A stretch of DNA of 64,000 nucleotides from an uncultured Actinomycetes bacterium (GCA_963788215.1 CAWBFX010000008.1:30404-94403); one strand, 5' to 3'. Positions 31,956 through 61,312 are shown, counted from the stretch's first letter. The notes: generated by a model not told the origin, from the sequence alone. Made by a program: numbers and translations.

Positions 31956-32711
31956 ATGCCCGGCCGGGTGTATGCGCTTGCCAATCAGAAGGGCGGGGTC
32001 GGCAAGACGACCACCGCGATCAACCTCGCGGCCTGCCTCGCCGAGGCCGGCGAGCGCACGCTCGTGGTCGATCTCGACCCGCAGGCGAACGCGACGTCGG
32101 GCCTCGGGGAGCGGGCGAACGGCAGCTCGTCGTTCGACCTCCTCGACGGGATCGCGCTCGAGCGGCTGATCCGTCCGACGAAGTTCGCGAACCTCGACCT
32201 CGTGCCGTCCAAGCCGGAGCTTGCAGGCGCCGCCGTCGAGCTCGCCCGGCGGCCGGACGGGGAGCGCTACCTCGCCGAGTCGCTGGCCGGAGCAGGAGCG
32301 CGCTACTCCTTCGTCTTCCTCGACTGCCCGCCGTCGCTCGGGCCGCTGACTGTCAACGCGCTCGCGGCCGCCGATCGCGTGCTCGTGCCGGTGCAGGCCG
32401 AGTACTACGCGCTCGAGGGCCTCGCGCAGCTCGTCGGCTCGGTCGAGCTCGTGCGCTCGCGGTTGAACCCGCGCCTCGCGATCGGCGGGGTGATCCTGAC
32501 CATGGTTGACCGGCGAACGCGCCTCGCGGCCGACGTCTCGGACGAGGTGCGCCGGCACTTCGGAGAGCTCGTCTTCCGCACGGCCGTTCCGCGCTCTGTC
32601 CGCCTCGCCGAGGCGCCGAGCCACGGGCTGCCGGTGACCGCCTACGACCGCGCGTCGGCCGGCGCCGACGCGTACTGGAAGGTGGCGATAGAGCTTGTCG
32701 GCCGTTCCTGA
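31956..32711 (+). CDS. parA: Chromosome partitioning ATPase ParA/Soj
   Basis: ANQKGGVGKTTTAINLA (deviant Walker A), VVDLDPQANAT, FLDCPPSLG. Confidence 0.92.
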   Translation: MPGRVYALANQKGGVGKTTTAINLAACLAEAGERTLVVDLDPQANATSGLGERANGSSSFDLLDGIALERLIRPTKFANLDLVPSKPELAGAAVELARRPDGERYLAESLAGAGARYSFVFLDCPPSLGPLTVNALAAADRVLVPVQAEYYALEGLAQLVGSVELVRSRLNPRLAIGGVILTMVDRRTRLAADVSDEVRRHFGELVFRTAVPRSVRLAEAPSHGLPVTAYDRASAGADAYWKVAIELVGRS

Positions 32712-33540
32712 CAAACGCCGCGGCCTGGGCCGCGGTCTCGAGCTGCTTGTCGGCGGCGAGGGCCAGCCGGAGCTGGCGCACCTGCCCGTCGAGACGATCC
32801 ACGCGAACCCCCGCCAGCCGCGGAAGCGCTTCGACCACGAGGCGGCGACCGCGCTCGCGGAATCGGTCCGCGCCCAGGGCCTGGTTCAGCCTGTGGTCGT
32901 GCGGCCGCGGCAGGCCGGCGGCTGGGAGCTGATCGCCGGCGAACGCCGCTGGCGTGCAGCGCGCGAGGCCGGACTCCCGACCGTTCCGGCGCTCGTGCGG
33001 GAAGCCGACGACCGCGACTCGCTGCTCCTCGGCCTCGTCGAGAACGTCGCACGCGAGGAGCTCTCCGCCGTCGAGGAGGCGCGCGCGTACGCGCTCCTGA
33101 TGGACGAGTTCGGGCTCTCGCTCGGCGACCTCTCGGCCCGAGTCGGGAAGGCGAAGCCGACGGTCTCCAACCGGCTGCGGCTGCTGGAGCTCACCGACGA
33201 CGTGCTTGGGATGGTCGAGCGCGGCGAGTTGAGCGAGGGTCACGCCCGCGCGGTCCTGGCCGTGCCCGACAACGAGGGGCGCCGCGGCCTTGCGCGGCAG
33301 ATCGTCCGTCGGCGGATGTCGGTACGCGCGGCGGAGCGCGCCGCCCGCTGGGCGGGAGCGAAGACGAAGCCGCGCAAGGTGCCGAAGGTCGACCCGGCGC
33401 TGGCGGCTCGTGCTCGCGAAGCTGCGGAGCGTGCAACCGGGTTCACCGCGCGCGTGACTGCGGGCCGGCTCGAGATCGCGTTCTCGGACGAGACCGAGCT
33501 CGAAGAGCTGGCGGAGGCGCTGGAGCGCCTCGTCGCGTAG
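32695..33540 (+). CDS. parB: Chromosome partitioning protein ParB/Spo0J
   Basis: RRGLGRGLELL, NPRQPRKRFD, LIAGERRWRAA (GERRxRA box), HTH KPTVSNRLRLLEL. TTG start overlaps parA by 17 nt. Confidence 0.92.
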   Translation: MSAVPDKRRGLGRGLELLVGGEGQPELAHLPVETIHANPRQPRKRFDHEAATALAESVRAQGLVQPVVVRPRQAGGWELIAGERRWRAAREAGLPTVPALVREADDRDSLLLGLVENVAREELSAVEEARAYALLMDEFGLSLGDLSARVGKAKPTVSNRLRLLELTDDVLGMVERGELSEGHARAVLAVPDNEGRRGLARQIVRRRMSVRAAERAARWAGAKTKPRKVPKVDPALAARAREAAERATGFTARVTAGRLEIAFSDETELEELAEALERLVA

Positions 33541-34501: not shown

Positions 34502-35104
34502 CTAGCTGCGTGCTCTGCTGATCGCGCGCTCGAGCTGAGCCTTGGTCATGCTCGACCGGCCGTCGATCTTCAGTCGCTTGGCCTGGTTGTAGAGCTGCTC
34601 CTTCGTCCTGCCGCTCCCGCTGCGGTTGTTGCTGCTGCTACCGCTGCTGCGGCTGCCGGACGAGCTGCTCCGGCTCCGGTTCGAGGAGCCACTACTGCCG
34701 CTGCGGCTCGAGGAGCCGCTGCTGCGGCCGGACGAGCTTCGGCTCTTGGACGACGACGAGCTCGAACGCTTCGACGAGCCCGAGCGCGCCTTCGATCCCG
34801 TCGAGCGCCGGCTCGAGCTCCCGGAGCTGCCTGAGGACCCGCTGCGCGAGCCGCTGGACGACCCGCTGCGCGAGCGGCTGGAGCCGCTGCGGGACCCGCT
34901 GGACCCACCGGAGCCGCTACGCGACCGCGAACCTTGCTGCGACCCTTCGCCGGACCCCTGGCTGTCCTGGTCGTCGTCATCCCCGCCGCCGCCGAGCACC
35001 TTGCGGCCCACGGCGACCGCGGCCGGGACGGCAACTCCGAGCGCCGCCCCCGCGACGACCTTCTTCCCGGTCGACATGCCTTCGTTGTCGTCCATCTCTT
35101 CCAT
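34502..35104 (-). CDS. Ser/Arg/Gly-rich low-complexity protein with an N-terminal Ala-rich segment and a C-terminal Rho_N/HeH-like helix-extended-helix motif
   Basis: GAAGGAGG RBS before the ATG. About 130 aa of SGS/SRS repeats. C-terminus TKEQLYNQAKRLKIDGRSSMTKAQLERAI resembles the Rho N-terminal/SAP-like fold. Confidence 0.65.
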   Translation of the reverse strand: MEEMDDNEGMSTGKKVVAGAALGVAVPAAVAVGRKVLGGGGDDDDQDSQGSGEGSQQGSRSRSGSGGSSGSRSGSSRSRSGSSSGSRSGSSGSSGSSSRRSTGSKARSGSSKRSSSSSSKSRSSSGRSSGSSSRSGSSGSSNRSRSSSSGSRSSGSSSNNRSGSGRTKEQLYNQAKRLKIDGRSSMTKAQLERAISRARS

Positions 35105-35128
35105 CGTTCCTCCTTCGGTTTGGGGCGG

Positions 35129-35443
35129 CTAGCTTCCGCCGCCCGCCTCGTTGAACGACTCGATGAACCGCGGCACGATCCGCTCGCGGATGATCTCGGG
35201 TGCGTTCTCGGCCACCCATTCGCCCGCGGCCCCTGCGGCATCCTCGGCCGCCGGAAGCAGCGCGTCCCGCGCCGCGTCCCAGCCGCCCGAGAGCGCCGAC
35301 GTGAGCATCGAGCTCATGTCGCCGCCCTTCGACCCCGAGTCGCCGTTGCTCGAGCTTCCGTTGGAGCCGCCTCGGTGCGAGAGCGCCTTCTTCGCGGCGA
35401 TCGCCGCCACGCTCGTCGCGGCCGCCGCGGCAGCGGCCTTCAC
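35129..35443 (-). CDS. Hypothetical gvp-locus protein (104 aa from GTG; may extend to ATG 35529 if the frame is corrected)
   Basis: VKAAAAAAATSVAAIAAKKALSHRGGSNGSSSNGD..., followed by a conserved-looking C-terminus EWVAENAPEIIRERIVPRFIESF. Confidence 0.5.
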   Translation of the reverse strand: MKAAAAAAATSVAAIAAKKALSHRGGSNGSSSNGDSGSKGGDMSSMLTSALSGGWDAARDALLPAAEDAAGAAGEWVAENAPEIIRERIVPRFIESFNEAGGGS

Positions 35444-35529
35444 GGCCGTGCTGCCACCGCCGCCACCGCTGCTGCTCTGCTGCTCGTCTTGTTCTGCTGG
35501 TTCTGCTGGTCCTGAGTCTCTTCAGCCAT
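35440..35529 (-). CDS. Possible 29-aa leader ORF (MAEETQDQQNQQNKTSSRAAAVAAVAARP), or the true 5' end of the downstream gene
   Basis: ATG 35529 is preceded by GAAGGAGG at the right spacing. Its TGA overlaps GTG 35443 as GTGA. Confidence 0.3.
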   Translation of the reverse strand: MAEETQDQQNQQNKTSSRAAAVAAVAARP

Positions 35530-35546
35530 CTCTTGGCCTCCTTCGT

Positions 35547-35798
35547 CTAGGAGCGCGCCTTGGAGCGGGCAGAGCCTGATGCGGACCCGGCGCCACCCTT
35601 CAGCTCTTGCAGGCGGCTCGTCAACGCTTCGTTGACGGTGCTAAAGGTTCCGGCAGCCTCGTCGGCGTGCTCGCTGATCTGGTCCGCGATCCGGACGAGC
35701 TTGTCGAAGCTCGCGCTGTCGCGGATCTCCTTGCGCAGGTTGTCGACGAGACCCGCGAGGTCGTCGGCGACCTGTTCGACGTCTTTCAGTGATGCCAT
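35547..35798 (-). CDS. Hypothetical small helical protein (83 aa) of the gvp locus
   Basis: AAAGGAG RBS before the ATG. MASLKDVEQVADDLAGLVDNLRKEIRDSASFDKLVRIADQISEH... has a helical/coiled-coil character. It is the C-terminal part of ORF 35547..36380. Confidence 0.55.
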   Translation of the reverse strand: MASLKDVEQVADDLAGLVDNLRKEIRDSASFDKLVRIADQISEHADEAAGTFSTVNEALTSRLQELKGGAGSASGSARSKARS

Positions 35799-35860
35799 CG
35801 GTGTTCTCCTTTCACGAGGACTCCTACGGGTATCACCGACCCGCTCGTTTTCATGCAGGT

Positions 35861-36217
35861 TTAGAGAAGATTTCCGAGCGGACCCAGATCGAGGTTCAAA
35901 TCCCGGTCTTCGAGGCCGAACTCGGCCTTCAGCTCGTCCATGCGCTGGTTGAGCTTCATGAAGGTCTCGCCGAGCTGGTCGAGCTGCTCGTCCGTCAGCG
36001 TCCCGCCCTCCATCCGGCGAAGCGCCTGGCGCTCCATCAGCTGGCGAAGGAGCTCGACGAGGGTCAGCACAAGGCGCGCGAGGCCTTGCTCGACCTTCTC
36101 CGGGTCGGCGTTGATACGTCGCGGGAACGCGTCCTGGACGTGCTCCAGCTCGCCGGCGATTCGGTTGAGGTCGCCGCTGCCGGCGAGGACCTTGTCGATC
36201 GGCTCGTGAGCGCTCAC
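35861..36217 (-). CDS. gvpK: Gas vesicle protein GvpK
   Basis: GTG 36217 (GTGA overlap). INADPEKVEQGLARLVLTLVELLRQLMERQALRRMEGGTLTDEQLDQLG...LNLDLGPLGNLL. Confidence 0.88.
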   Translation of the reverse strand: MSAHEPIDKVLAGSGDLNRIAGELEHVQDAFPRRINADPEKVEQGLARLVLTLVELLRQLMERQALRRMEGGTLTDEQLDQLGETFMKLNQRMDELKAEFGLEDRDLNLDLGPLGNLL

Positions 36218-36855
36218 TTCGCGGCCTCCGCTCCGAACGAGTACGGCGGCCACGGCCCCGTGCAGGCGAGCGACAGCTCGGGGTGCGCCGCTTGCAGCTC
36301 GCGGACCGTGCCGAGAAACGTGGACGCGTCCTCGTCGCGCACGAGGTAGGCGCGCTCGAACACGTTGCTCCCCGTCGCACCGCCTGCAGTCTCCTGCGCG
36401 AGGCGGGCGAGCGGCTCGTCGAGCTGGGCGATCAGCTGCGAGCGGCGACGCTCCTCGTCCAGCCGGGCGCGCAGGTATTCGGCTCCGGACTCTGTTTCGG
36501 GACCGCTCTCCGGCGCCGGCGCAACGACGCGCACGCCGAGCTCGACGCAGCCTCGAACACGCTGCAGCCGCTGCTCGAGGTCGGAAGCCTTCGCGGTCAC
36601 CGCGGAGACCAGCTCTTCGTCGCCGGCGAAGGGTCGGCTGAACTGCGCGGGCAGCACGGCTCGGCTGCGGCCCATCAGGGCCTCGACGACCTCGGCGTGG
36701 CGCAGCACGGCTTCCTGCGTGACCTCGTCGCGCGGGACCTCGCTCACCACCAGCTCCAGCGCGTCGACGCGCCTGCGCTCGAGCGGCGCGCCTTCGACGC
36801 CTTCGACGGGCGGCAGGGAGTCGAGCTCGTCGACGATCCCGTAGACGTGGATCAC
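36214..36855 (-). CDS. GvpF/GvpL-family gas vesicle protein (third paralog)
   Basis: MIHVYGIVD...VLPAQF...AYLV...LACTGPWPPYSF, the hallmark GvpL_GvpF ends. Confidence 0.85.
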   Translation of the reverse strand: MIHVYGIVDELDSLPPVEGVEGAPLERRRVDALELVVSEVPRDEVTQEAVLRHAEVVEALMGRSRAVLPAQFSRPFAGDEELVSAVTAKASDLEQRLQRVRGCVELGVRVVAPAPESGPETESGAEYLRARLDEERRRSQLIAQLDEPLARLAQETAGGATGSNVFERAYLVRDEDASTFLGTVRELQAAHPELSLACTGPWPPYSFGAEAAK

Positions 36856-37067
36856 CGCAGCGCGTCTCCGATCGCGACCGGCATGCCCTGCTCCTCGAGC
36901 GTCGCCACGGAGGCGAGGAGCACGCGCAGGCCGACGTAGACGAGGTCGACGTCCGCGACCGAGAGCGTGATGTCACCCGAAAGGACGACGCCCTTGTTGA
37001 GCACCCGGTCGACCAGCTCGAGCAGCGTGACCTGCTGGCGGAGGTCTGGACGGAGGTCGGAGCTCAT
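36852..37067 (-). CDS. gvpS: Gas vesicle protein GvpS (GvpA/J/M-family, small)
   Basis: Inner ATG overlaps the gvpL stop as ATGA. TLLELVDRVLNKGVVLSGDITLSVADVDLVYVGLRVLLASV. Confidence 0.8.
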   Translation of the reverse strand: MSSDLRPDLRQQVTLLELVDRVLNKGVVLSGDITLSVADVDLVYVGLRVLLASVATLEEQGMPVAIGDALR

Positions 37068-37849
37068 GCCCGCAGCTCCTCCGAGACGAAGTTGTACGGA
37101 GGCCATGGCCCGGTCAGCTCGAGCTCGAGCCCTCGTTCGGAGAGCTCCCGCGCCAGAGCGGCGAGCTCGCGCTCGAAGCCAGGCCGGTCGGAGACGAGGT
37201 AGGCGCTGTTGAGCACCATCTCTTCGTCGCGGCCGCTCAGCTCCGGCCGCTGGAGGTCGAGCAGGACGCCGCGCTCTGCGGCGTCCAGCAGGCGGCGGTG
37301 CAGCTCGGAGGCGGCCTCCTGCCCGAAGCGCGCACGCTCGTCGCCGACGAGGCGCTCGAGCCGACGCGACTCGAGGTAGGCGCGGCCGCCTTGTGCGCCT
37401 GCCGCCTGCGCGGTCAGCTCGCGGATTCGGTCGTTCTCCTGGGCGCCGCCGGCCGCAAAGCGTTCCGGGTCGACGAACGCCTTCACGCCCAGCTCGACGC
37501 GGCCCGCGACCTCGGCGAGCGCTGCCGACAGCGCGTCCTGCCGGTCGCTGAGGAACTGCTTCAGCTCAGCCTCTGTCCGGTAGACCGTGCAGAAGCGACA
37601 GGGCAAGACCGTCGTGGACGCCAGCACGCGCTCGAGCACCTGCTCGTGGCGGCGGATGTTCTCTTCCAGCCAGGCCGCGTCGCCGAGCCGCTCTACCAGG
37701 GCCGCCTCGTCGAACTCCTCGAGCGAGACGCGGCTCGCTACCCCGGCGAGCCGACCTTCGGTGACGAGCTCGACGGCCTGCCCGGCGTCGACGGCTCCCG
37801 GCGCGCCCGCCTCGACGACGCCGTAGAGGTACCAGCCTTCCGCGTTCAC
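37064..37849 (-). CDS. gvpL: Gas vesicle protein GvpL (GvpF/L family)
   Basis: GTG 37849 (GTGA overlap with gvpJ). WYLYGVVEAG...VLPCRF...AYLV...LTGPWPPYNF. Confidence 0.85.
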   Translation of the reverse strand: MNAEGWYLYGVVEAGAPGAVDAGQAVELVTEGRLAGVASRVSLEEFDEAALVERLGDAAWLEENIRRHEQVLERVLASTTVLPCRFCTVYRTEAELKQFLSDRQDALSAALAEVAGRVELGVKAFVDPERFAAGGAQENDRIRELTAQAAGAQGGRAYLESRRLERLVGDERARFGQEAASELHRRLLDAAERGVLLDLQRPELSGRDEEMVLNSAYLVSDRPGFERELAALARELSERGLELELTGPWPPYNFVSEELRA

Positions 37850-38154
37850 GACTCCTCGTCGCTCGTCGGCAGGCCGACCTTCTCCTCGATCGCGCGCAGC
37901 CGCTTGTCGAGCTCGCCGCGGCCGTTGCTGCCGGACAGGAACGGATCGCTCTGCCACCAGTCGATGCCCATCTCCTTGGCCTTGTCGGCGGAGGCGATCA
38001 GCAGCCGGATCTTCACCGTGAGCAGCTCGATGTCGAGCAGGTTGATCTGGATGTCGCCGGCCACGACGATGCCCTTGTCGAGGACGCGCTCGAGCACGTC
38101 CGTGAGCTGCGCCGGCTGGCCGGAGCGATAGCCCTCGAGGTCGCGGCTGCTCAC
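37846..38154 (-). CDS. gvpJ: Gas vesicle protein GvpJ (GvpA-family)
   Basis: LTDVLERVLDKGIVVAGDIQINLLDIELLTVKIRLLIASADKAKEMGIDWW. Confidence 0.85.
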   Translation of the reverse strand: MSSRDLEGYRSGQPAQLTDVLERVLDKGIVVAGDIQINLLDIELLTVKIRLLIASADKAKEMGIDWWQSDPFLSGSNGRGELDKRLRAIEEKVGLPTSDEES

Positions 38155-38846
38155 AGCCCTTCTCCGTTGGCCTGCGAACGCGTGTAGCGCCGGACCTGGC
38201 GGTAGCTGCGGAGGCCGAGCTTCTCGTCGAGCTCGAGCTCGTACGACGCGAGCACGTCGGTCGTCTCGGGAATGCGCGACAGCTCGAGCACCTCGAGCGT
38301 GGCCACCCAGCCGTTCTGCGTCCGCTCCAGCGCGGAGGCGGACTCGACCGCCTTGCCGAGGAGCTCCTGAAGCTGGTCGCGGGCCGTCCTCATCGCCTTG
38401 CCGGCGTCGCCGAGCGAGGCGCCTTCCACCGGCTCGGGCTCGTGGTGCTGCTCGTCGCGCTGCCGGTCGTCGTCCTGGCGCGCGTTGTCGTGCTGGTGCG
38501 CTTCGGGCTGCTGCTCTTCCGGCTGCTCGGCCTGTGGCTCGTCGTCCTGCTCGGACTCCGCCTCGGGCTCGTCGGGCTTCTCGGGCTCGGCCCGCTCGTC
38601 CTCGGTGCCGCCATCGGCGTCGTTGCCGTGATGGGTGAACGCGCGGGCCGCAGCGGCGGCTGCGCCGACGGCGGCTCCGGCGGCGGCGACCTTGGCGGCC
38701 TGCTTTACGGCCTCGAGCGGCTCTCCGTTCCGGGCCTCCGAGCTGTCGTCCCGCGAGTTGTCGTCCTGCTGAGGCTCCTCGGAGCTGCCACGCCGCTTCT
38801 GGCGGGACTCCTGCCGCTTCTTCTGCGCGTCGGTCAGGTCAGCCAT
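38151..38846 (-). CDS. gvpO: Gas vesicle protein GvpO with a long acidic/Q-rich N-terminal region
   Basis: C-terminus NGWVATLEVLELSRIPETTDVLASYELELDEKLGLRSYRQVRRYTR matches the GvpO domain. Confidence 0.8.
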   Translation of the reverse strand: MADLTDAQKKRQESRQKRRGSSEEPQQDDNSRDDSSEARNGEPLEAVKQAAKVAAAGAAVGAAAAAARAFTHHGNDADGGTEDERAEPEKPDEPEAESEQDDEPQAEQPEEQQPEAHQHDNARQDDDRQRDEQHHEPEPVEGASLGDAGKAMRTARDQLQELLGKAVESASALERTQNGWVATLEVLELSRIPETTDVLASYELELDEKLGLRSYRQVRRYTRSQANGEGL

Positions 38847-39082
38847 TCGCGCTCCTCCTGTTCTGCTTCCAGCTGGTCGAGCGCCGCTTCCTCGATGACT
38901 TCGTATTCCTCGTGCGAGAGGACGCCCAGCTCGAGCTGCCGCTCCGCGACCAGGAGCCGCCGGCGCGCCGACTGCGCGCCGTAGAGCTGGCGCTCGGCCT
39001 CGGCGGCGAGCTGCTCGGCGATCCAGACGGTCCCGCGGACCGGCGCGAGCGGCAGGGTCAGCAGGCCCGTGATCATGCCCAT
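38834..39082 (-). CDS. gvpG: Gas vesicle protein GvpG
   Basis: ITGLLTLPLAPVRGTVWIAEQLAAEAERQLY...LELGVLSHEEYEVIEEAALDQL. Confidence 0.85.
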   Translation of the reverse strand: MGMITGLLTLPLAPVRGTVWIAEQLAAEAERQLYGAQSARRRLLVAERQLELGVLSHEEYEVIEEAALDQLEAEQEEREWLT

Positions 39083-39850
39083 CAGCGGCGCTCCTCGAGT
39101 CTCACGAAGCTGTGCGGCGGGAGGGGCCCGACGTACGAGAAGTCGATCCGCCCGGCCTGCGCGGCGGCGAGCTCCTCCATCGCCTCGTCGAAGGCCTTCA
39201 TGCGCTTCCGCTCGACGAGGAAGGACGCGCGCAGGAGCTGGTGCTCGATCTGCTCGTCCGAGACGTCGTACGCGAGGGCGATGGCCCCGAGCCGCTCCAC
39301 GATGGAGCGGGCATCGCGCGCCGTTCGGGCCTGCAGCTCGGCCGAGACGAGCTCGCCGAGCTCCAGGAGAGCGGGAGGGGAGCCGCCGCCTTGCGTCTGC
39401 TCGCGCAGGCGCGCGACCCGCGGGCTCTCGCGGACGATCTCGGCCAGCACGGCTTCCTCGCGGTAGTGAGCAGTCACCCGCAGCTCGACGCGGTCGCGCA
39501 GCTCGCGCAGCAGCCCGGCGAGCTCGTCATGGCGCGGCTCGAGGAAGTCGCGGACGAGCGAGTCCTCGTCGTCGAAGACGATCCCGAAGCGAAGCGGTAC
39601 GACGGTCCCGCGCTCGAAGGCGGTTGCGAGCACGTCGAAGTGCGTGAGCAGGTCCGCCCGGCGCGCCCGCACCTTTCCCGGCGGCGCGGCGCTCGTGAGA
39701 GCGGCGAGCTTCCGGAAGCGGACCGGCTCGACCGACGGCGCCGGCCAGGCCGGCGTCCGGCTGCGAGGCCACGCCGTCGGCGGACGTGACGCCGTAGCAG
39801 TACAGCGCGGTTGAGAGCGGCGCCCGGGTCGGGGGGGTCTGGAGCGCCAT
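39082..39850 (-). pseudogene. gvpF: Gas vesicle protein GvpF, reading frame interrupted near 39735-39742
   Basis: N-terminus MALQTPPTRAPLSTALYCYGVTSADGVASQPDAGLAGA runs from ATG 39850 in one frame. The continuation SVEPVRFRKLAALTS...VRARRADLLTHFDVL...VVPLRF...FLV...YVGPLPPHSF is in the frame of ORF 39082..39672, which stays open upstream with no start codon. Confidence 0.7.
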
Positions 39851-39854
39851 GTGC

Positions 39855-40238
39855 CTAGTCGCGCTTCACGCGCTCCTTCACGCCCTCTTTCGCGTCCGAG
39901 GCCTTGTCCTTGGCTCCTTCCATCATCCCCTTCGCCTTTCCGCCGCCGTTGTCCCCACCGCCACCGCCGCCGTCGCGGAGCTCCGCGAGGCCGGCAGCCT
40001 CCGTCTGCGTGAGATCGAGCCGGTTGACCTGCTCGGCGAAGCGCAGGTAGGTGTCGACGCTCGCGATCACGATCCGTGCGTCGATCGTGATCAGCTCGAT
40101 CCCGATCACGGCGATCCGGACGTAGGCGTCGATCACGAGCCCCTTGTCGAGGATCAGGTCGACGACATCCGCGAGCCCGCTCGGGCTGGGCGCGCGCTGG
40201 AGGTAGTTGCTCGCGGTTCCCTGGGTTGCGATTGCCAT
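39855..40238 (-). CDS. gvpA: Major gas vesicle structural protein GvpA, copy 2 (127 aa, Gly/Lys-rich tail)
   Basis: LADVVDLILDKGLVIDAYVRIAVIGIELITIDARIVIASVDTYLRFAE. Confidence 0.9.
   Translation of the reverse strand: MAIATQGTASNYLQRAPSPSGLADVVDLILDKGLVIDAYVRIAVIGIELITIDARIVIASVDTYLRFAEQVNRLDLTQTEAAGLAELRDGGGGGGDNGGGKAKGMMEGAKDKASDAKEGVKERVKRD
40002..40238. repeat. Direct repeat unit B (5' 237 nt of gvpA copy 2)
   Basis: By eye this is near-identical to 40775..41011; I saw 2 mismatches (GCA/GCC at codon 4, GAT/GAC near codon 75). Confidence 0.8.
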
Positions 40239-40247
40239 CAGATCTCC

Positions 40248-40559
40248 TTAGGTCGATCCCGTCTGCTCTAGAGCTTTTCGCCGCTGACCGCGGCGCTTCT
40301 CGCGGTCCTGGCGCTGGGTGTCGCGGCTCGGCTCGGCCTCGGCGTGGGCGCCGCTGTCAGCGGCCTGCCCGTTGCCGTCGCCGCGCTCGCGCAGCATCGG
40401 GAGCAGCTTCTCCTGCGCGAGCGAGCCCGCTTTCCGTCCGAGGTACGCGCTGGCGGCGTGGACCACCGCGGCGACGAGCGGCGCGAGGGCCTTTCTCAGC
40501 ATCGCCTTGAGGAAGCCGCTCGTGCGGCCGGGCGACGCCGTCTCGGCGCTCTCCGCCAT
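40248..40559 (-). CDS. Hypothetical protein between the two gvpA copies (103 aa)
   Basis: ATG overlaps the gvpA-1 stop by one base (A 40559). LRKALAPLVAAVVHAASAYLGRKAGS Ala-rich segment, then a charged tail. No family recognised. Confidence 0.5.
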   Translation of the reverse strand: MAESAETASPGRTSGFLKAMLRKALAPLVAAVVHAASAYLGRKAGSLAQEKLLPMLRERGDGNGQAADSGAHAEAEPSRDTQRQDREKRRGQRRKALEQTGST

Positions 40560-41011
40560 CAGTCTTCGTCCCCCGATCCGTTGTCGTTTCTCTTCGAGGC
40601 GATCTGACGTGCCGCCGCCGCCGCAGCGCCGACCGCCGCCGCAGCCGCCGCGCCCTTCATCGCCTTGCGGATGCCCGGGCTGTCGGGCGTGACCTCGTCC
40701 TCGACGCCTTCGATGGCGCCTTCGGTCATCTTCTCGGCGCCCTTTTCCTGCAGTTCCGGGAGACCGGCGAGTTCCGTCTGCGTGAGGTCGAGCCGGTTGA
40801 CCTGCTCGGCGAAGCGCAGGTAGGTGTCGACGCTCGCGATCACGATCCGTGCGTCGATCGTGATCAGCTCGATCCCGATCACGGCGATCCGGACGTAGGC
40901 GTCGATCACGAGCCCCTTGTCGAGGATCAGGTCGACGACATCCGCGAGCCCGCTCGGGCTGGGCGCGCGCTGGAGGTAGTTGCTCGCGGTTCCCTGGGTG
41001 GCGATTGCCAT
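40559..41011 (-). CDS. gvpA: Major gas vesicle structural protein GvpA, copy 1 (150 aa, acidic + poly-Ala tail)
   Basis: First 79 aa are identical to copy 2. The tail carries KAMKGAAAAAAVGAAAAAARQIASKRNDNGSGDED. Confidence 0.9.
   Translation of the reverse strand: MAIATQGTASNYLQRAPSPSGLADVVDLILDKGLVIDAYVRIAVIGIELITIDARIVIASVDTYLRFAEQVNRLDLTQTELAGLPELQEKGAEKMTEGAIEGVEDEVTPDSPGIRKAMKGAAAAAAVGAAAAAARQIASKRNDNGSGDED
40775..41011. repeat. Direct repeat unit A (5' 237 nt of gvpA copy 1)
   Basis: See repeat unit B. The repeats are 773 nt apart in the same orientation. Confidence 0.8.
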
Positions 41012-41050
41012 TTGACGCAGCTTTTGCCCGGATTACCCGCTTCTAACCAC

Positions 41051-42034
41051 TCACGACGAGGACGTCAGCGACTTGCTGCGCTCTTCGCGCCGCTTCGCCC
41101 TGTCCTCGCGGTCCGAGTCGCGGTCCTTGTCGTCGTCGCCGGCGTCGTCATCGCTGTCGTCGCCGCGGCCCTGAGCCTCCTGCTCGTCGCCGCTCTCGTC
41201 GTCCTCCTCGTTGCCCTGGTTCTGCTCCATCTCGGCGGGCGACGACTTGTACTCGAGCCCCTTGACGTCGCCGAACTCGACGTACGCCTTGAAGCGGGCG
41301 AGGTCGGCCTCGACGGCGCGCTTCACGAAGCGCATGCCCGAGGCCATCTTCTCGAGGATCCCCGAGGGGACGAAGTCGAGCGTCACGAGCACGCGCGTGA
41401 GGTTCGAGTCCAGCTTGTGGAAGCTGATCACGCCGGAGTGCTGGGTGCCGCTCACCGACTTCCAGGCGATGCGGTCGTTCTTGCGCCGCTCGGTGATCTC
41501 CCCGTCCCACTCGCGCGTGCTGAACCAGATCTTCTCGCGCCAGTGGATCTTGTTGTTGTCCCCGTCGTCCTTCTCGACGTCGAGAACGCGATGCATGAAC
41601 TTCGGGAACTCCTCGAACTGCGTCCACGCCTGGTAGGCCTTGTCGACCGGAACGGCGACGTCGGTCCAGCGCTGAATCGGGAGCCGGCGCGTCTTGCCGC
41701 CCTTCTGGCCGCCGCCTCCGTCATCGCCGCCACCGCCACCCATCAGCTTGGAGGCGATCTTGCCGCCCGGGCCGCTCGACGCGAGGCCCTTCTTCAGGCC
41801 CTGCATGCCCTTCTTTCCGAGCTCTTCGCCTTCTTCGCTCGCCTCGCCCTGAAGCTTCTTCATCAGGTCGGGGCCTTTCTTGGCGGCGAGCCCGGCCGCC
41901 GCGGCGCTCGCTGCTGCCGCTGCCACGGGGAAGAGCACGCCCTTGCCGCCCAGCCCGGACAGGCGGGAGCGACCTTCGTCGTCGGATCCGTTTGATGAAA
42001 CCTTGTCTTCGATTTCCTCGACTGCTTCGGACAT
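41051..42034 (-). CDS. SRPBCC (START/cyclase-dehydrase fold) protein with an Ala-rich N-terminal region and an acidic tail; first gene of the gvp locus
   Basis: GGAGG RBS before ATG 42034. WTDVAVPVDKAYQAWTQFEEFPKFMHRV...IAWKSVSGTQHSGVISFHKLDSNLTRVLVTLDF...ADLARFKAYVE matches the Polyketide_cyc2-like pattern. Confidence 0.8.
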   Translation of the reverse strand: MSEAVEEIEDKVSSNGSDDEGRSRLSGLGGKGVLFPVAAAAASAAAAGLAAKKGPDLMKKLQGEASEEGEELGKKGMQGLKKGLASSGPGGKIASKLMGGGGGDDGGGGQKGGKTRRLPIQRWTDVAVPVDKAYQAWTQFEEFPKFMHRVLDVEKDDGDNNKIHWREKIWFSTREWDGEITERRKNDRIAWKSVSGTQHSGVISFHKLDSNLTRVLVTLDFVPSGILEKMASGMRFVKRAVEADLARFKAYVEFGDVKGLEYKSSPAEMEQNQGNEEDDESGDEQEAQGRGDDSDDDAGDDDKDRDSDREDRAKRREERSKSLTSSS

Positions 42035-58667: not shown

Positions 58668-59399
58668 TCAGCCGGTGGTCGACGCGAGCGGCGCGGCGGC
58701 GAGCTGCGTCGCCGGCGGGTGGAGCCACCGCCCGCCGCGCGGCTCGACGCGGGCCAGCCGCGCGTAGACGAGGTACCTGTGCGTCGCGAAGAACCGCGGG
58801 TGGCACGCCTGCAGCACGACCACTTCCCGGCCGTGCGAGTGCAGGACGGCCAGGTCGTCGGCCTTGACGATCCGCTTCTGGAAGATCCGGTAGCGGAACG
58901 TCCCGTACGGCACCTCGAGGGTGATCGCGTCGCCCACCCGCAGCTTCTCGATGTGCGCGAAGGGCGCGAGATAGGTCGTCCGGTGGCCGGCGATGTAGAT
59001 CAGCTGGCCCTCGCCGGGCATGTACGTGCGCAGGTCGCGGCCCGGGCCCTTCTTCAGCGTCGCATCGTCGGTTCCGTTGACGAGGATCATGTTCACGCCG
59101 ATGCGCGGGACGCGGATGCGCCCGATTGCCTCGCCGCGCTTCGACGCGAGGCGATAGCGACGACCCTCCTGCGCGACGGCCCGCATGGTGGAGTCGACTG
59201 ACGCGTCGGAGGTGCGAGCCGGACGGTACGCGTCGAAGCGCTTCTCGTACGAGTGGGAGAGCCGGCCCTGCTGCCAGTGCGTGTAGAGCGCGGTGAACGG
59301 GTCCTGCCACCGCCAGACGACCACGACCCAGACGAGGACGAAGGCGCCCGCGACGAGGAGCACCGTCCCGCCGATCCGGAGCGACCGTTGCATGCTCAT
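58668..59399 (-). CDS. Class E-like sortase
   Basis: N-terminal TM. IYIAGHRTTY (catalytic His), VLQACHP (TLxTC-type Cys), catalytic Arg region. ATG 59399 overlaps the upstream stop as ATGA. Confidence 0.85.
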   Translation of the reverse strand: MSMQRSLRIGGTVLLVAGAFVLVWVVVVWRWQDPFTALYTHWQQGRLSHSYEKRFDAYRPARTSDASVDSTMRAVAQEGRRYRLASKRGEAIGRIRVPRIGVNMILVNGTDDATLKKGPGRDLRTYMPGEGQLIYIAGHRTTYLAPFAHIEKLRVGDAITLEVPYGTFRYRIFQKRIVKADDLAVLHSHGREVVVLQACHPRFFATHRYLVYARLARVEPRGGRWLHPPATQLAAAPLASTTG

Positions 59400-61312
59400 C
59401 CTTCCAGCGCCTTCGATTCCTCCTGTACGGGGCGTCTCCTCGCCCGCACTCCGAGAACCACCCGTCTGACTGTTTCCCGGATCGGGCCTCGCGCAGGCCG
59501 CTCGGACGCGCTCGGGTACGGCGCGTACCGGCCGGCTGCGAGAGCGGCGACCTGTCCTGCGGCGGCGAGCCAGGCGACGGCGATCACCACCGCGGAGAGG
59601 CGCACGTAGCCGCTTGCCGTCAGCTCGGCGAGGTACCACGGCGCGTCGAGCCCGAGCCCGAAGCGCACCGCGAGCGAGCCGAGCAGCAGCAAGGGGCCGA
59701 GCAGGCCCGCCGCGAACAACGCGAGTCGCGCCGAGATGGGCCGGTTGCGCACGTTCGGTAGCCAGAGCCACGCGTGCAAGGACGGAAGCAGGAAGACGAG
59801 CGCGAACGGATTCGTCGCGACGACGAGGAGCGCGACGACTGCGAGCGCGAGGAGCGCGGCAGTCGTGCCGGCAAGCTCCTCCGAGGAGCCGATCGGCCTG
59901 CGCGGCGTGAGGCTCGTCCGCGTCACGACCCAGCCGATGAGGCTGAGCACCGCGAAACCGGCAAGCGCCAGGACGGGCCAGCTCGTCGCGGGCGGCGTGT
60001 CGGGCGGCAGGGGTACCGAGGGAGCCGACGGCCAGGCGCCGGTCAGCGCGAAGAGCTCGAAGATCGCGGCCGTCCAGAGCCAGAAGCCGAGGCGGCTGCG
60101 GTAGCTGCGGAACGCGGACGCGACGCCGATGTGCCGTCGGCGGCAGCGGGCAAAGAGGTCGACCGCAGCCACCAGGAACGGGGCGAGCGCCGCGATCAGC
60201 ACGAGCTCGATCGCCCAGCCGGGCAGGATCCTGGGCCCGAAGTAGACGTAGCTTGCGGTCCCCGGCGCGAGCTCGACTCCGGAGTCGAGCCACCGCAGGA
60301 GCTGCTGCGCCGCGCCTCCGAGCTCCCCGAGGCGGATCGCATCGAGCCGGTTCGGTCGGTCGGTGAACGCCGCCGGGGGCCGCTCGCCGCCGCTCGTGAG
60401 CGTGAGCGCGGGCATCCCGTGGGCAAGGAGCGGTCCCTGAGCGTGCAAGGTGTAGGGAAAGGCGAGATCGAGGAGCTGGGCGAAGCCGGTCGGCCGCCGG
60501 GGCCGCGAGCCTGTCTGCTGCAGGACGAGCCGAGACGCGGTCTCGACCAGTCCCGGTGAGGCGAGGCGGGGCTGCGATCCCGCGAGGACGAGTCGCGCGC
60601 GGCCCGGGTCGGCGAGGGAGTCGAGGTCGATCGCCGCCAGGACGTGGCCGTGATGGGTCTGCGCGAAGCGCCGGGCGCCGAGGGCTCCGAACGCGCCGCC
60701 GTCGGTCGCGACGAAGACGAGGGTGTGCAGCGGGCTGAGCGCGCGGGCCCCGGGCGCGTCGACGGGCGTCCCGTACGAGCGCGCAAGCTGGATGAGCGCC
60801 GCGATCCCGGACCCGTTGTCGTTCGCGCCGGGCCCGCGGCCGCTGTCGTCGCGGTGCGCCATCAGGACGATCTCGTCGGGGAGCTTCCCGGGGATGGTCA
60901 CGAGCTGGTTGACGAGCGGCTGGCGGCCGTGCCCGGGCAGGAGCGCGCGGAAGCGGTCGTCGGAGACCTTCAGCCCGTACGGCGCGAGCTGCTGCGCGTA
61001 CCAGGTAGCGGCTCCCGCGGCACCGGCCGTCCCAGGCACGCGGTCCGGGTACGTCGCCGCCAGCTGCGACGCCAGCTCTACCGCACCGCTGCGGTCGAAA
61101 GCGGCCGGCAGCGCCGGAGAAGGCGCAGGCAGCGGCTCGGCCTTCCGGACGCTGAAGGCGGCGAGGAGGAGCGGGATTCCGACGAGCAGCCACGTCCCGC
61201 GGTAGAGACGCCCGCTGACGGGGCGCTCGAGCGAGCCGAGCCGCGGCCGGCGCCGGGCAGGTCGGGGCGGGAGGGCCGCCATACCCTGGCTATAGTAGGT
61301 ACGCGGTCTCAC
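59396..61312 (-). CDS. M28-family Zn-aminopeptidase domain fused to a C-terminal polytopic membrane domain
   Basis: LMAHRDDSGRGPGANDNGSGIAALI (M28 metal ligands), then at least 7 predicted TM helices. The start may be the inner ATG at 61282. Confidence 0.8.
   Translation of the reverse strand: MRPRTYYSQGMAALPPRPARRRPRLGSLERPVSGRLYRGTWLLVGIPLLLAAFSVRKAEPLPAPSPALPAAFDRSGAVELASQLAATYPDRVPGTAGAAGAATWYAQQLAPYGLKVSDDRFRALLPGHGRQPLVNQLVTIPGKLPDEIVLMAHRDDSGRGPGANDNGSGIAALIQLARSYGTPVDAPGARALSPLHTLVFVATDGGAFGALGARRFAQTHHGHVLAAIDLDSLADPGRARLVLAGSQPRLASPGLVETASRLVLQQTGSRPRRPTGFAQLLDLAFPYTLHAQGPLLAHGMPALTLTSGGERPPAAFTDRPNRLDAIRLGELGGAAQQLLRWLDSGVELAPGTASYVYFGPRILPGWAIELVLIAALAPFLVAAVDLFARCRRRHIGVASAFRSYRSRLGFWLWTAAIFELFALTGAWPSAPSVPLPPDTPPATSWPVLALAGFAVLSLIGWVVTRTSLTPRRPIGSSEELAGTTAALLALAVVALLVVATNPFALVFLLPSLHAWLWLPNVRNRPISARLALFAAGLLGPLLLLGSLAVRFGLGLDAPWYLAELTASGYVRLSAVVIAVAWLAAAGQVAALAAGRYAPYPSASERPARGPIRETVRRVVLGVRARRRPVQEESKALEG

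Follow-up and report, generated by a model that had tools for sequence, protein, structure and literature searches.

Alanine-rich, basic-bracketed segments in proteins of a Gaiellaceae-type gas vesicle gene cluster: conserved modules that may act as docking peptides

Introduction

How do the accessory proteins of a gas vesicle find the growing shell and act upon it? This is the field's question, and the known interactions have been mapped protein by protein; no description of a recognisable motif common to accessory Gvp proteins was found in the literature. The gas vesicle (gvp) gene cluster considered here raises the question at the level of sequence. It lies at 34502-42034 on the minus strand of a 64,000-nucleotide stretch of DNA from an uncultured Actinomycetes bacterium (GCA_963788215.1 CAWBFX010000008.1:30404-94403; the whole stretch is called the window, and positions are counted from its first letter), and six of its proteins carry a short run rich in alanine, glycine and valine that is bracketed by lysine or arginine. 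These modules exist, are specific to the system, are conserved and of fixed length, and stand at the positions given in Table 1. Below we describe them and ask whether they may hold accessory proteins at the shell.

Results

The six segments and their enrichment in the cluster

An original prediction, made from the sequence alone, had proposed that six proteins of the locus share one A/G/V-rich segment followed in most cases by a G/N/D/S-rich linker. All six segments are present on the minus strand, at coordinates that differ by up to about 25 nucleotides from those first given, and every one comprises a run of 15-20 residues free of D, E, K and R, with at least 60% A, G or V and with K/R at both ends. 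The linker was likewise recovered, a G/S/N/D-rich stretch lying within about 10 residues of the segment in five of the six proteins and about 50 residues later in the SRPBCC protein.

In a lax form, the motif is matched by 6 of the 15 cluster proteins vs 1 of the 43 other called proteins of the window (Fisher p=7e-4); around 80 further gvp loci of actinobacteria, 24 of 803 flanking proteins match. The predicted absence from the remainder of the window holds as rarity outside the cluster, with the exception of that single match, a transmembrane (TM)-like helix in the protein at 59396-61312. In a strict form it occurs in 17/87 proteins of Gaiellaceae-type clusters, in 1/92 proteins of their flanks and in 0/550 proteins of other gvp clusters. 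When each of the six proteins is shuffled residue by residue, such a segment arises with a probability of 1e-4 to 1.6e-2. Both motif definitions were fitted post hoc to the six segments, and profiles were therefore used as well. The gene caller, which relies on G+C content at third codon positions (GC3) and codon usage, is crude and missed gvpK, orf83 and the gene of the Ser/Arg-rich (S/R-rich) protein, for which reason the cluster proteins were curated by BLAST; the wrong-frame open reading frames (ORFs) among the background counts would, if anything, inflate the background. The locus specificity that had been proposed is borne out by these enrichments together with the profile searches described below, and all six segments are retained in orthologous gvp loci.

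The original prediction knew of no described motif of this kind, and the searches agree with it. No Pfam or NCBIfam family covers the segments, Pfam giving no match over the six module regions even at E<=10, and the gas vesicle literature searched yielded neither a description of an alanine-rich module nor a relevant Gaiell- or SRPBCC-related report.

The type I module of GvpA1, GvpO and orf104

The idea of one common module did not survive profile comparison. Judged by their profiles, the six segments are two clear groups, type I and type II, plus a third type found in the S/R-rich protein; a single module for all six was rejected, as the hhalign comparison of type I with type II was no better than reversed-sequence controls.

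Type I follows the pattern K, 15 uncharged residues, K/R, a small residue and then [FLI]-[ST]-[HS], and is carried by the tail of the shell paralog GvpA1, by GvpO and by the small protein orf104. These three families are similar to one another beyond composition (hhalign 92-97%, scores 30-40 vs 16-17 in reversed controls), and a hidden Markov model (HMM) built from orf104 alone gave its top ranks, out of 1,660 proteins, to the GvpA1 tails and GvpO. Within the window the type I HMM returns 48.0, 39.8, 38.5 and 13.5 bits, the next best score being 7.1. When searched at a threshold of 12 bits against 14,477 six-frame ORFs (wrong frames included) from 163 loci, which total 1.82 Mb of DNA with an equally high GC content, it recovered 57 GvpO proteins and one ORF labelled GvpJ by its best BLAST match, 21 GvpA1 proteins and one tail fragment, 21 orf104 proteins, five S/R-rich orthologs (weak) and one unplaced small protein (P0264); the gvp loci of Streptomyces and Solirubrobacterales, 1.33 Mb in all, contained no match at 12 bits or above. 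A profile made of the three window fragments and run against 1.84 billion representative proteins gave 15 matches at E<=1e-3. Twelve of these are gvp proteins (eight GvpO, two orf104 and two GvpA1 tails); the others are a small acidic protein and two repeat proteins, the latter two being false positives.

The unplaced protein P0264 (L082 231-524) is an acidic protein of 97 amino acids (aa) with a good type I module (TAAKGAAAGAAVGAAAGAAQHVISSRRGE; 34.7 bits) on a 742-bp contig that offers no usable context; it may represent a fourth carrier family or a fragment.

The three hosts place the module differently. Metagenomic homologs of GvpA1 of about 150 aa form more than 120 clusters at 84-96% identity, and the tail block is nearly invariant across 33 homologs. 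In GvpO, an N-terminal basic/acidic disordered region is followed by the type I module, an acidic linker and the GvpO domain. The orf104 family comprises 538 homologs, typically 124-131 aa long, with a Pfam domain in none of them, and the orf104 profile found no relative in the PDB. Across 38 homologs, columns K29, A32, A33, A35, A36, T37, A40 and A41 are invariant, so that the module, mid-module threonine included, holds most invariant columns of the N-terminal half. The segment is only seemingly N-terminal in the window, as homologs have an acidic/polar leader of about 25 residues before it.

In the 5' part of orf104 (35443-35545, minus strand) an ATG at about 35529 with a GAAGGAGG ribosome-binding site opens 'MAEETQDQQNQQNK…', that frame stops and the protein resumes in another. 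Relative to L081, which together with P0001 is a close homolog, 5-nt and 3-nt insertions (an 8-nt difference) lie in the CAG/AAC-rich leader; the frameshift is either an assembly indel or a real mutation.

The type II motif and the third type

Type II extends over about 38 residues with the consensus …L-x-P-Ala-rich-Y-x-A-x-K-G-P-x-L…V-L-P-K. It is found in the SRPBCC protein, which consists of an N-terminal extension bearing the motif, the SRPBCC domain and an acidic tail, and in orf103, a protein with no Pfam or NCBIfam match whose orthologs were found by position in L001-L004, L006 and L009. The two match each other in hhalign (95.7%, score 38 vs 20 for the reversed control). A charged, type II-like motif occupies the C-terminal half of orf104 and matches orf103 at 95% and the SRPBCC N-terminus at 89%, the reversed controls remaining below 1%, and hence orf104 bears both types, type I N-terminally and charged type II C-terminally. 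The SRPBCC motif is kept in orthologs, the more distant L007 and L027 having a charged version. Charges inside the segment in L007, L027 and the orf104 C-terminus mark the A/G/V-only, basic-bracketed look as a clade-specific flavour of an ordinary small motif.

The S/R-rich protein combines an acidic N-terminus, the hydrophobic segment, a short acidic stretch and a long basic Ser/Arg tail with a C-terminal Rho_N/SAP-like motif, the latter being weak (Pfam E=0.0056, below cutoff). Its segment (KKVVAGAALGVAVPAAVGVAKK) shows 81% mean pairwise identity across six orthologs vs 27-36% in the flanks, and its resemblance to type I is weak (hhalign 55-57%; 13.5 bits). A query of the 54 N-terminal residues retrieved just 12 fragmentary orthologs and no other family.

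Conservation, length and codon usage

Mean pairwise identity is 0.43-0.81 in the modules vs 0.15-0.37 in most neighbouring 25-residue stretches, the exception being the stretch upstream of the GvpA1 module (0.61). The modules stand at differing positions in unrelated proteins, to which they are joined by poorly conserved G/S/N/D/E-rich linkers; where host domains exceed their curated cutoffs (PF00741 at 47.7 bits, cutoff 25; PF05800 at 94.1, cutoff 25; PF03364 at 54.4, cutoff 23.4), the module lies outside the domain each time. The uncharged core of type I is exactly 15 aa in 17/17 GvpA1, 43/51 GvpO and 19/20 orf104 distinct sequences, and in 38/38 (the orf104 set) and 31/33 of the metagenomic homologs, a constancy that argues against slippage-prone low-complexity sequence.

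Pairwise codon differences in the GvpA1 tail are mostly synonymous (164 synonymous vs 89 nonsynonymous), and alanine codons vary freely both between orthologs and between the GvpA1 and GvpO copies, showing that it is the peptide, not a DNA repeat, that is under selection. A DNA-level repeat or recent duplication was rejected on the same grounds, since the GvpA1 and GvpO modules use different alanine codons.

Distribution and co-occurrence

In a locus set to which 80 further soil-metagenome loci were added, type I is confined to a Gaiellaceae-like clade; in Streptomyces, Solirubrobacterales and intermediate metagenome-assembled genomes (MAGs), neither GvpO nor the GvpA tails have it. Of the 22 loci that could be assessed, 19 have both the GvpA1-tail module and that of GvpO (19 +/+, 2 +/-, 1 -/+). 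The only locus with a GvpO module and no HMM match in GvpA1, L153, has a divergent 18-residue Ala-rich GvpA1 tail. A module-bearing GvpA is paired with a module-free GvpA in 21 loci, and wherever GvpA1 is seen, the locus also has another GvpA whose core is almost identical and which lacks the module; in the window, the cores of GvpA2 and GvpA1 are identical over most of the first ~80 residues and their tails are completely different. Between the GvpO and orf104 modules there is a tiny same-locus excess of similarity (0.628 vs 0.600, p=0.005).

Physical nature of the segments

The best 19-residue windows of the segments have Hessa insertion free energies (dG) of +3.0 to +7.3 kcal/mol, vs -6.9 to +0.9 for the window's true TM helices, on a simple additive scale and not by a full predictor. 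With cores of 15-20 residues, the weak TM helix that had been offered as one option is not upheld, and a TM helix or signal anchor was rejected as the segments are too short and too weakly hydrophobic on this scale. AlphaFold2 (AF2), given a 38-sequence alignment for orf104 and 34 sequences for GvpA1, places helices over the modules, at residues 25-48 of an orf104 homolog and at 112-141 of GvpA1.

Further identities were considered and set aside. A Sec/Tat signal peptide does not fit the C-terminal GvpA1 copy (aa 119-135 of 150) or the GvpO copy at aa 52-68, and the orf104, S/R-rich and SRPBCC copies come after acidic/polar leaders of 12-30 residues and have K/R behind them; a match to TIGR02811 is weak (E=0.0084, far below cutoff). 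A GvpC-type external shell protein was rejected as there is one block per protein, with no tandem 33-residue repeats and no GvpC family match in Pfam or NCBIfam among the cluster proteins scanned. A YtxH (PF12732)/GvpP-like identity was rejected likewise, since neither the six module regions nor orf103 and orf104 gave a match at E<=10.

Discussion

A docking role for the modules

Shell docking is, in our judgement, the most plausible reading of these modules: we give a probability of roughly 0.4 to the proposal that the segments are short tethered interaction peptides which tie accessory proteins to the shell surface. Here the helicity, exposure and binding partner of the modules are all inferred. 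In solved shells, the resolved GvpA fold stops after helix alpha2 and the C-terminal tails are flexible (PMC9994262; bioRxiv 10.1101/2023.06.01.543273), and helix alpha2 with the flexible C-terminal tail of the Bacillus megaterium shell protein is where GvpU binds (bioRxiv 10.1101/2023.06.01.543273). The GvpA1 module lies past helix alpha2 on a linker of about 30 residues, and shell-protein tails bind GvpU from the cytoplasm; air-interface anchoring, which the original prediction had named alongside docking, is thus unlikely for the GvpA1 copy.

In the proposed mechanism, type I would be an Ala-rich helix of 15 residues between K/R brackets, with small side chains on each of its faces, and in GvpO and orf104 it lies on flexible linkers of low complexity. 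The GvpA1 tail of about 60 residues would put this block on the cytoplasmic face of the shell, at the end of a tether of about 30 residues, and a shell containing GvpA1 would hence display many copies of the peptide. There would then be two ways of keeping GvpO and orf104 at the shell: their helices could pack on those of the GvpA1 tails, or they could use the same site on the invariant GvpA core as the tail does. Use of such a common core site would, in addition, account for the block's extreme conservation and for the absence of co-variation from copy to copy. Type II, probably a helix-turn-helix, would tie the SRPBCC protein, orf103 and orf104 together, and orf104, as the carrier of both types, could serve the two sets as an adaptor. 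A fuller version, in which these soil actinobacteria, as a clade, tag their gas vesicles by a natural system where GvpA1 displays the peptide and recruits GvpO and orf104 to the vesicle, with orf104 as the adaptor that brings in the SRPBCC protein and orf103, is doubtful, though we find it worth stating.

Several observations weigh against docking. In the subclade of L003 and L126, the GvpA1 tail module is present and GvpO lacks its module, so that the GvpO copy is dispensable. When GvpA1-tail modules are compared with GvpO modules, pairs from one locus resemble each other no more closely than pairs drawn from separate loci (0.667 vs 0.680, permutation p=0.92), which gives no sign of co-evolution between copies, and as all module-bearing loci come from one clade their co-occurrence may reflect single ancestry. 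The six cores are not amphipathic (hydrophobic moment, muH, 0.02-0.19; Eisenberg, 100 degrees), unlike known organelle-targeting helices. Finally, AF2 confidence is low, with a mean predicted local distance difference test (pLDDT) score of 52 for orf104 and 44 for GvpA1 and of ~45-55 over the modules, and the helix is only a propensity.

Alternative explanations

The peptides could instead mask the shell protein, by covering the aliphatic, gas-facing side of GvpA before its assembly, the GvpA1 tail acting in cis and GvpO and orf104 in trans; this would keep GvpA soluble until insertion, or would help to nucleate the first gas cavity. The expectation in the field is that other proteins accompany shell proteins from their synthesis until they are inserted (PMC11445434). 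Masking leaves unexplained, however, that GvpA2, with its almost identical core, has no such tail, that the core is fixed at 15 residues between basic brackets, and that the SRPBCC, orf103 and S/R-rich proteins carry different motifs; we regard it as unlikely.

Less likely again is that the segments act as membrane or lipid anchors, i.e., as short TM or in-plane helices that would tether the proteins, and via GvpA1 the vesicle itself, to the cytoplasmic membrane. Their uncharged, K/R-bracketed character would suit such a role, as would Kyte-Doolittle means of up to 1.3-1.9 over 19 residues; hydrophobicity is highest in the segments of the SRPBCC protein (a segment of 20 aa, dG +3.0) and the S/R-rich protein (one of 18 aa), and SRPBCC domains are often lipid-binding. 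Against this stand the insertion energies given above, a type I core that at 15 residues is too short for a bilayer, the charges inside the segment in type II orthologs, basic residues on both sides that provide no topology signal, and the C-terminal position of the GvpA1 copy.

We consider it improbable to a slightly greater degree that GvpA1 tails of neighbouring vesicles or ribs stick to one another through Ala-zipper helices or silk-like poly-Ala beta-sheets, bundling or stiffening them under the modulation of the accessory copies. Poly-Ala blocks with Gly-rich spacers resemble the crystallite blocks of silk, and the 15 cluster ORFs yielded no GvpC or GvpN homolog (Pfam, NCBIfam). Clustering of vesicles via the tail of a shell protein is moreover known for GvpU/GvpB (bioRxiv 10.1101/2023.06.01.543273). 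Yet each protein has a single block and no repeats, the charged brackets would act as gatekeepers against beta-aggregation, AF2 predicts a helix, if with low confidence, and self-association alone does not explain the peptide on GvpO and orf104. The last alternative, functionless GC-driven alanine runs in disordered regions, which the original prediction had itself named as what would undo it, could appeal to the ~70% GC of the genome, to alanine contents of 15-24% in four of the six proteins (6-9% in the SRPBCC and S/R-rich proteins) and to motif definitions fitted afterwards, but is contradicted by the present evidence and hardly credible: length is fixed, positions such as the invariant T37 of orf104 are conserved despite synonymous codon turnover, no similar frequency was seen in window or flank proteins, shuffling rarely yields such a segment in any of the proteins, about 14,000 six-frame ORFs hold no type I match beyond these families and one unplaced protein, and a search of 1.84 billion proteins brings up, besides the gvp families, no more than one unplaced small protein and two repeat proteins.

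Comparison with known systems

The docking reading recalls the encapsulation peptides of bacterial microcompartments, which are likewise peptides of about 15-20 residues at or near a terminus, joined by a poorly conserved flexible linker and found on several unrelated proteins of the organelle's own locus. Those peptides are amphipathic, unlike the uniformly small and hydrophobic modules described here; in the present case, in addition, the shell protein also has a copy, the organelle is a gas vesicle and shell binding is inferred. Encapsulin cargo-loading peptides, too, are short conserved peptides that direct diverse cargo to a protein shell on a flexible linker, yet they are C-terminal and extended and bind a pocket inside the shell, whereas the modules here are probably helical, lie mostly near N-termini and occur on the shell subunit as well. 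We know of no described targeting peptide for gas vesicles, and none was found in the literature searched.

Among gas vesicle proteins, GvpC, which reinforces cyanobacterial and haloarchaeal vesicles externally, provides a helical element proposed to lie on the outer GvpA shell surface, and in this cluster without gvpC a tail-borne helix could take a similar place. GvpC, however, is a separate protein; it consists of amphipathic repeats of 33 residues, and vesicle stabilisation depends on their conserved F, L and R (PMC9994262). In the present case there is one 15-residue block, without repeats or sequence similarity to GvpC. The GvpU-GvpB pair differs in that the GvpB tail has 22 residues and is not Ala-rich, compared with a GvpA1 tail of about 60 residues with a conserved Ala-rich block at its end, and in that GvpU has no copy of the tail sequence. 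The YtxH-type proteins GvpP and GvpQ of B. megaterium are comparable in being small gvp-cluster proteins with a K-flanked, Gly/Ala-rich and hydrophobic N-terminal helix; type II has a consensus of its own (LxP...Y.A.KGP...VLPK).

A sequence-defined peptide shared by the tail of a shell subunit and by accessory proteins, along with a second motif that links three further proteins, makes for a concrete docking hypothesis. If true, it would explain how accessory proteins are organised in a cluster without gvpC and gvpN, and would constitute the first sequence-defined targeting code for gas vesicle accessory proteins, one transferable to engineered vesicles as a small genetic handle for decorating the gas vesicles used as acoustic reporters. 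Should docking fail, the modules would be Ala-rich sequences under strict constraint of length and sequence that still need explanation.

The locus and its surroundings

The genes run in the order SRPBCC, gvpA1, orf103, gvpA2, gvpF, gvpG, gvpO, gvpJ, gvpL, gvpS, second gvpF, gvpK, orf83, orf104, S/R-rich (Table 1), an order kept in L001-L006 and L009. No GvpU homolog was identified in the cluster (Pfam, NCBIfam). By GvpJ (80-82% identity), the nearest genomes are Gaiellaceae and unclassified Actinomycetota MAGs. The GC content of the window is ~70%.

Table 1. Coordinates of the cluster features discussed in the text; "segment as first predicted" gives the checked extent of each A/G/V-rich segment of the original prediction.
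Feature	Coordinates	Strand	Evidence or remarks
gvp-linked SRPBCC protein (327 aa from Met at 42034)	41051-42034	-	Pfam Polyketide_cyc 2e-14, aa 126-231
Type II motif, SRPBCC N-terminal extension (aa 25-65)	41840-41962	-	type II HMM 50.1 bits
SRPBCC, segment as first predicted	41873-41947	-	
gvpA1 (150 aa, shell paralog, long C-terminal tail)	40559-41011	-	Pfam Gas_vesicle 1.7e-12; NCBIfam GvpA subfamily 5e-39
Type I module, GvpA1 tail: K-GAAAAAAVGAAAAAA-R, aa 119-135	40607-40657	-	type I HMM 48.0 bits
GvpA1 tail, segment as first predicted	40577-40666	-	
orf103 (small, between gvpA1 and gvpA2, basic C-terminal tail)	40248-40559	-	positional orthologs
Type II motif, orf103 (aa 17-57)	40389-40511	-	type II HMM 49.4 bits
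orf103, segment as first predicted	40422-40499	-	
gvpA2	39855-40238	-	second shell paralog; tail without module
gvpF (first)	39082-39672 + frameshifted N-terminus	-	see frameshift at 39670-39850
gvpO (231 aa)	38151-38846	-	Pfam GvpO 5.3e-27, aa 144-226
Type I module, GvpO: K-VAAAGAAVGAAAAAA-R, aa 52-68	38643-38693	-	type I HMM 39.8 bits; 58 related loci
GvpO, segment as first predicted	38619-38705	-	
orf104 (small protein, N-terminal leader lost by frameshift)	35129-35443	-	homologs without Pfam domain
Type I module, orf104: K-AAAAAAATSVAAIAA-K	35390-35440	-	type I HMM 38.5 bits
orf104, segment as first predicted	35357-35440	-	
Type II-like motif (charged), orf104 C-terminal half: AARDALLPAAEDAAGAAGEWVAENAPEIIRERIVPR	35168-35275	-	type II HMM 14.6 bits; up to 28 in orthologs
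S/R-rich protein (200 aa)	34502-35104	-	orthologs L001, L002, L004, L006, L009
Type III segment, S/R-rich: KK-VVAGAALGVAVPAAVAVG-RK	34976-35068	-	6 orthologs
S/R-rich, segment as first predicted	34976-35068	-	

The first gvpF is apparently frameshifted at 39670-39850 (minus strand), the typical N-terminus 'MALQTPPTRAPLSTALYCYGVTSADGV…' being read in one frame from 39850 and '…PVRFRKLAALTS…VRARRADLL…', which is the remainder, in another. In the close relative L081 (GvpA1 identity 96%; 394-kb ENA contig) the gvpF and gvpO gene calls are likewise fragmented, which suggests indel-prone assemblies. Between gvpK and orf104, its invariable position in the clade, lies orf83 (35547-35798, minus strand), a conserved small helical protein with a Ser/Gly/basic tail at its end; no family could be assigned to it, the only matches being weak and apolipoprotein-like (coiled coil).

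A homolog of the SRPBCC protein is present in nearly all of the 80 actinobacterial gvp loci (e.g. L010 8856-9998). In Streptomyces its gene stands directly upstream of gvpJ, in the slot that gvpY/gvpZ occupy in the S. coelicolor tables, where they are listed as 'conserved hypothetical' genes (PMC5839063). A gas vesicle role of the SRPBCC protein appears to be undescribed.

In the S/R-rich orthologs L004, L006 and L009, Lys/Arg/Thr-rich tails take the place of the Ser/Arg tail. The tail of this protein is very basic, in contrast to very acidic regions in GvpO and at the C-terminus of the SRPBCC protein, so that a charge-driven association is conceivable. A second type of Streptomyces gvp locus (L020 7198-8268, L037, L039, L043, L047, L063; minus strand, beside the SRPBCC gene) encodes a protein with the N-terminal sequence 'TTK-IALAAAVAGGYVLG-RAKKG', which precedes a Glu-rich, hyper-acidic region and then a histone-H1-like tail with the sequence AKKAPAKK (Pfam HC2 1.9e-6, below cutoff). 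Homology of its hydrophobic segment to orf103 or to the other modules was not supported (hhalign <5%); its architecture is analogous to that of the S/R-rich protein.

The cluster adjoins the oriC neighbourhood, with the dnaA/dnaN/recF/gyrB/gyrA region, rnpA-yidC and parAB. Its immediate neighbours (32695-33540, 31956-32711 and upstream) are parB/parA, gidB, a gene for a KH/R3H protein and yidC/rnpA, and L081 is arranged alike.

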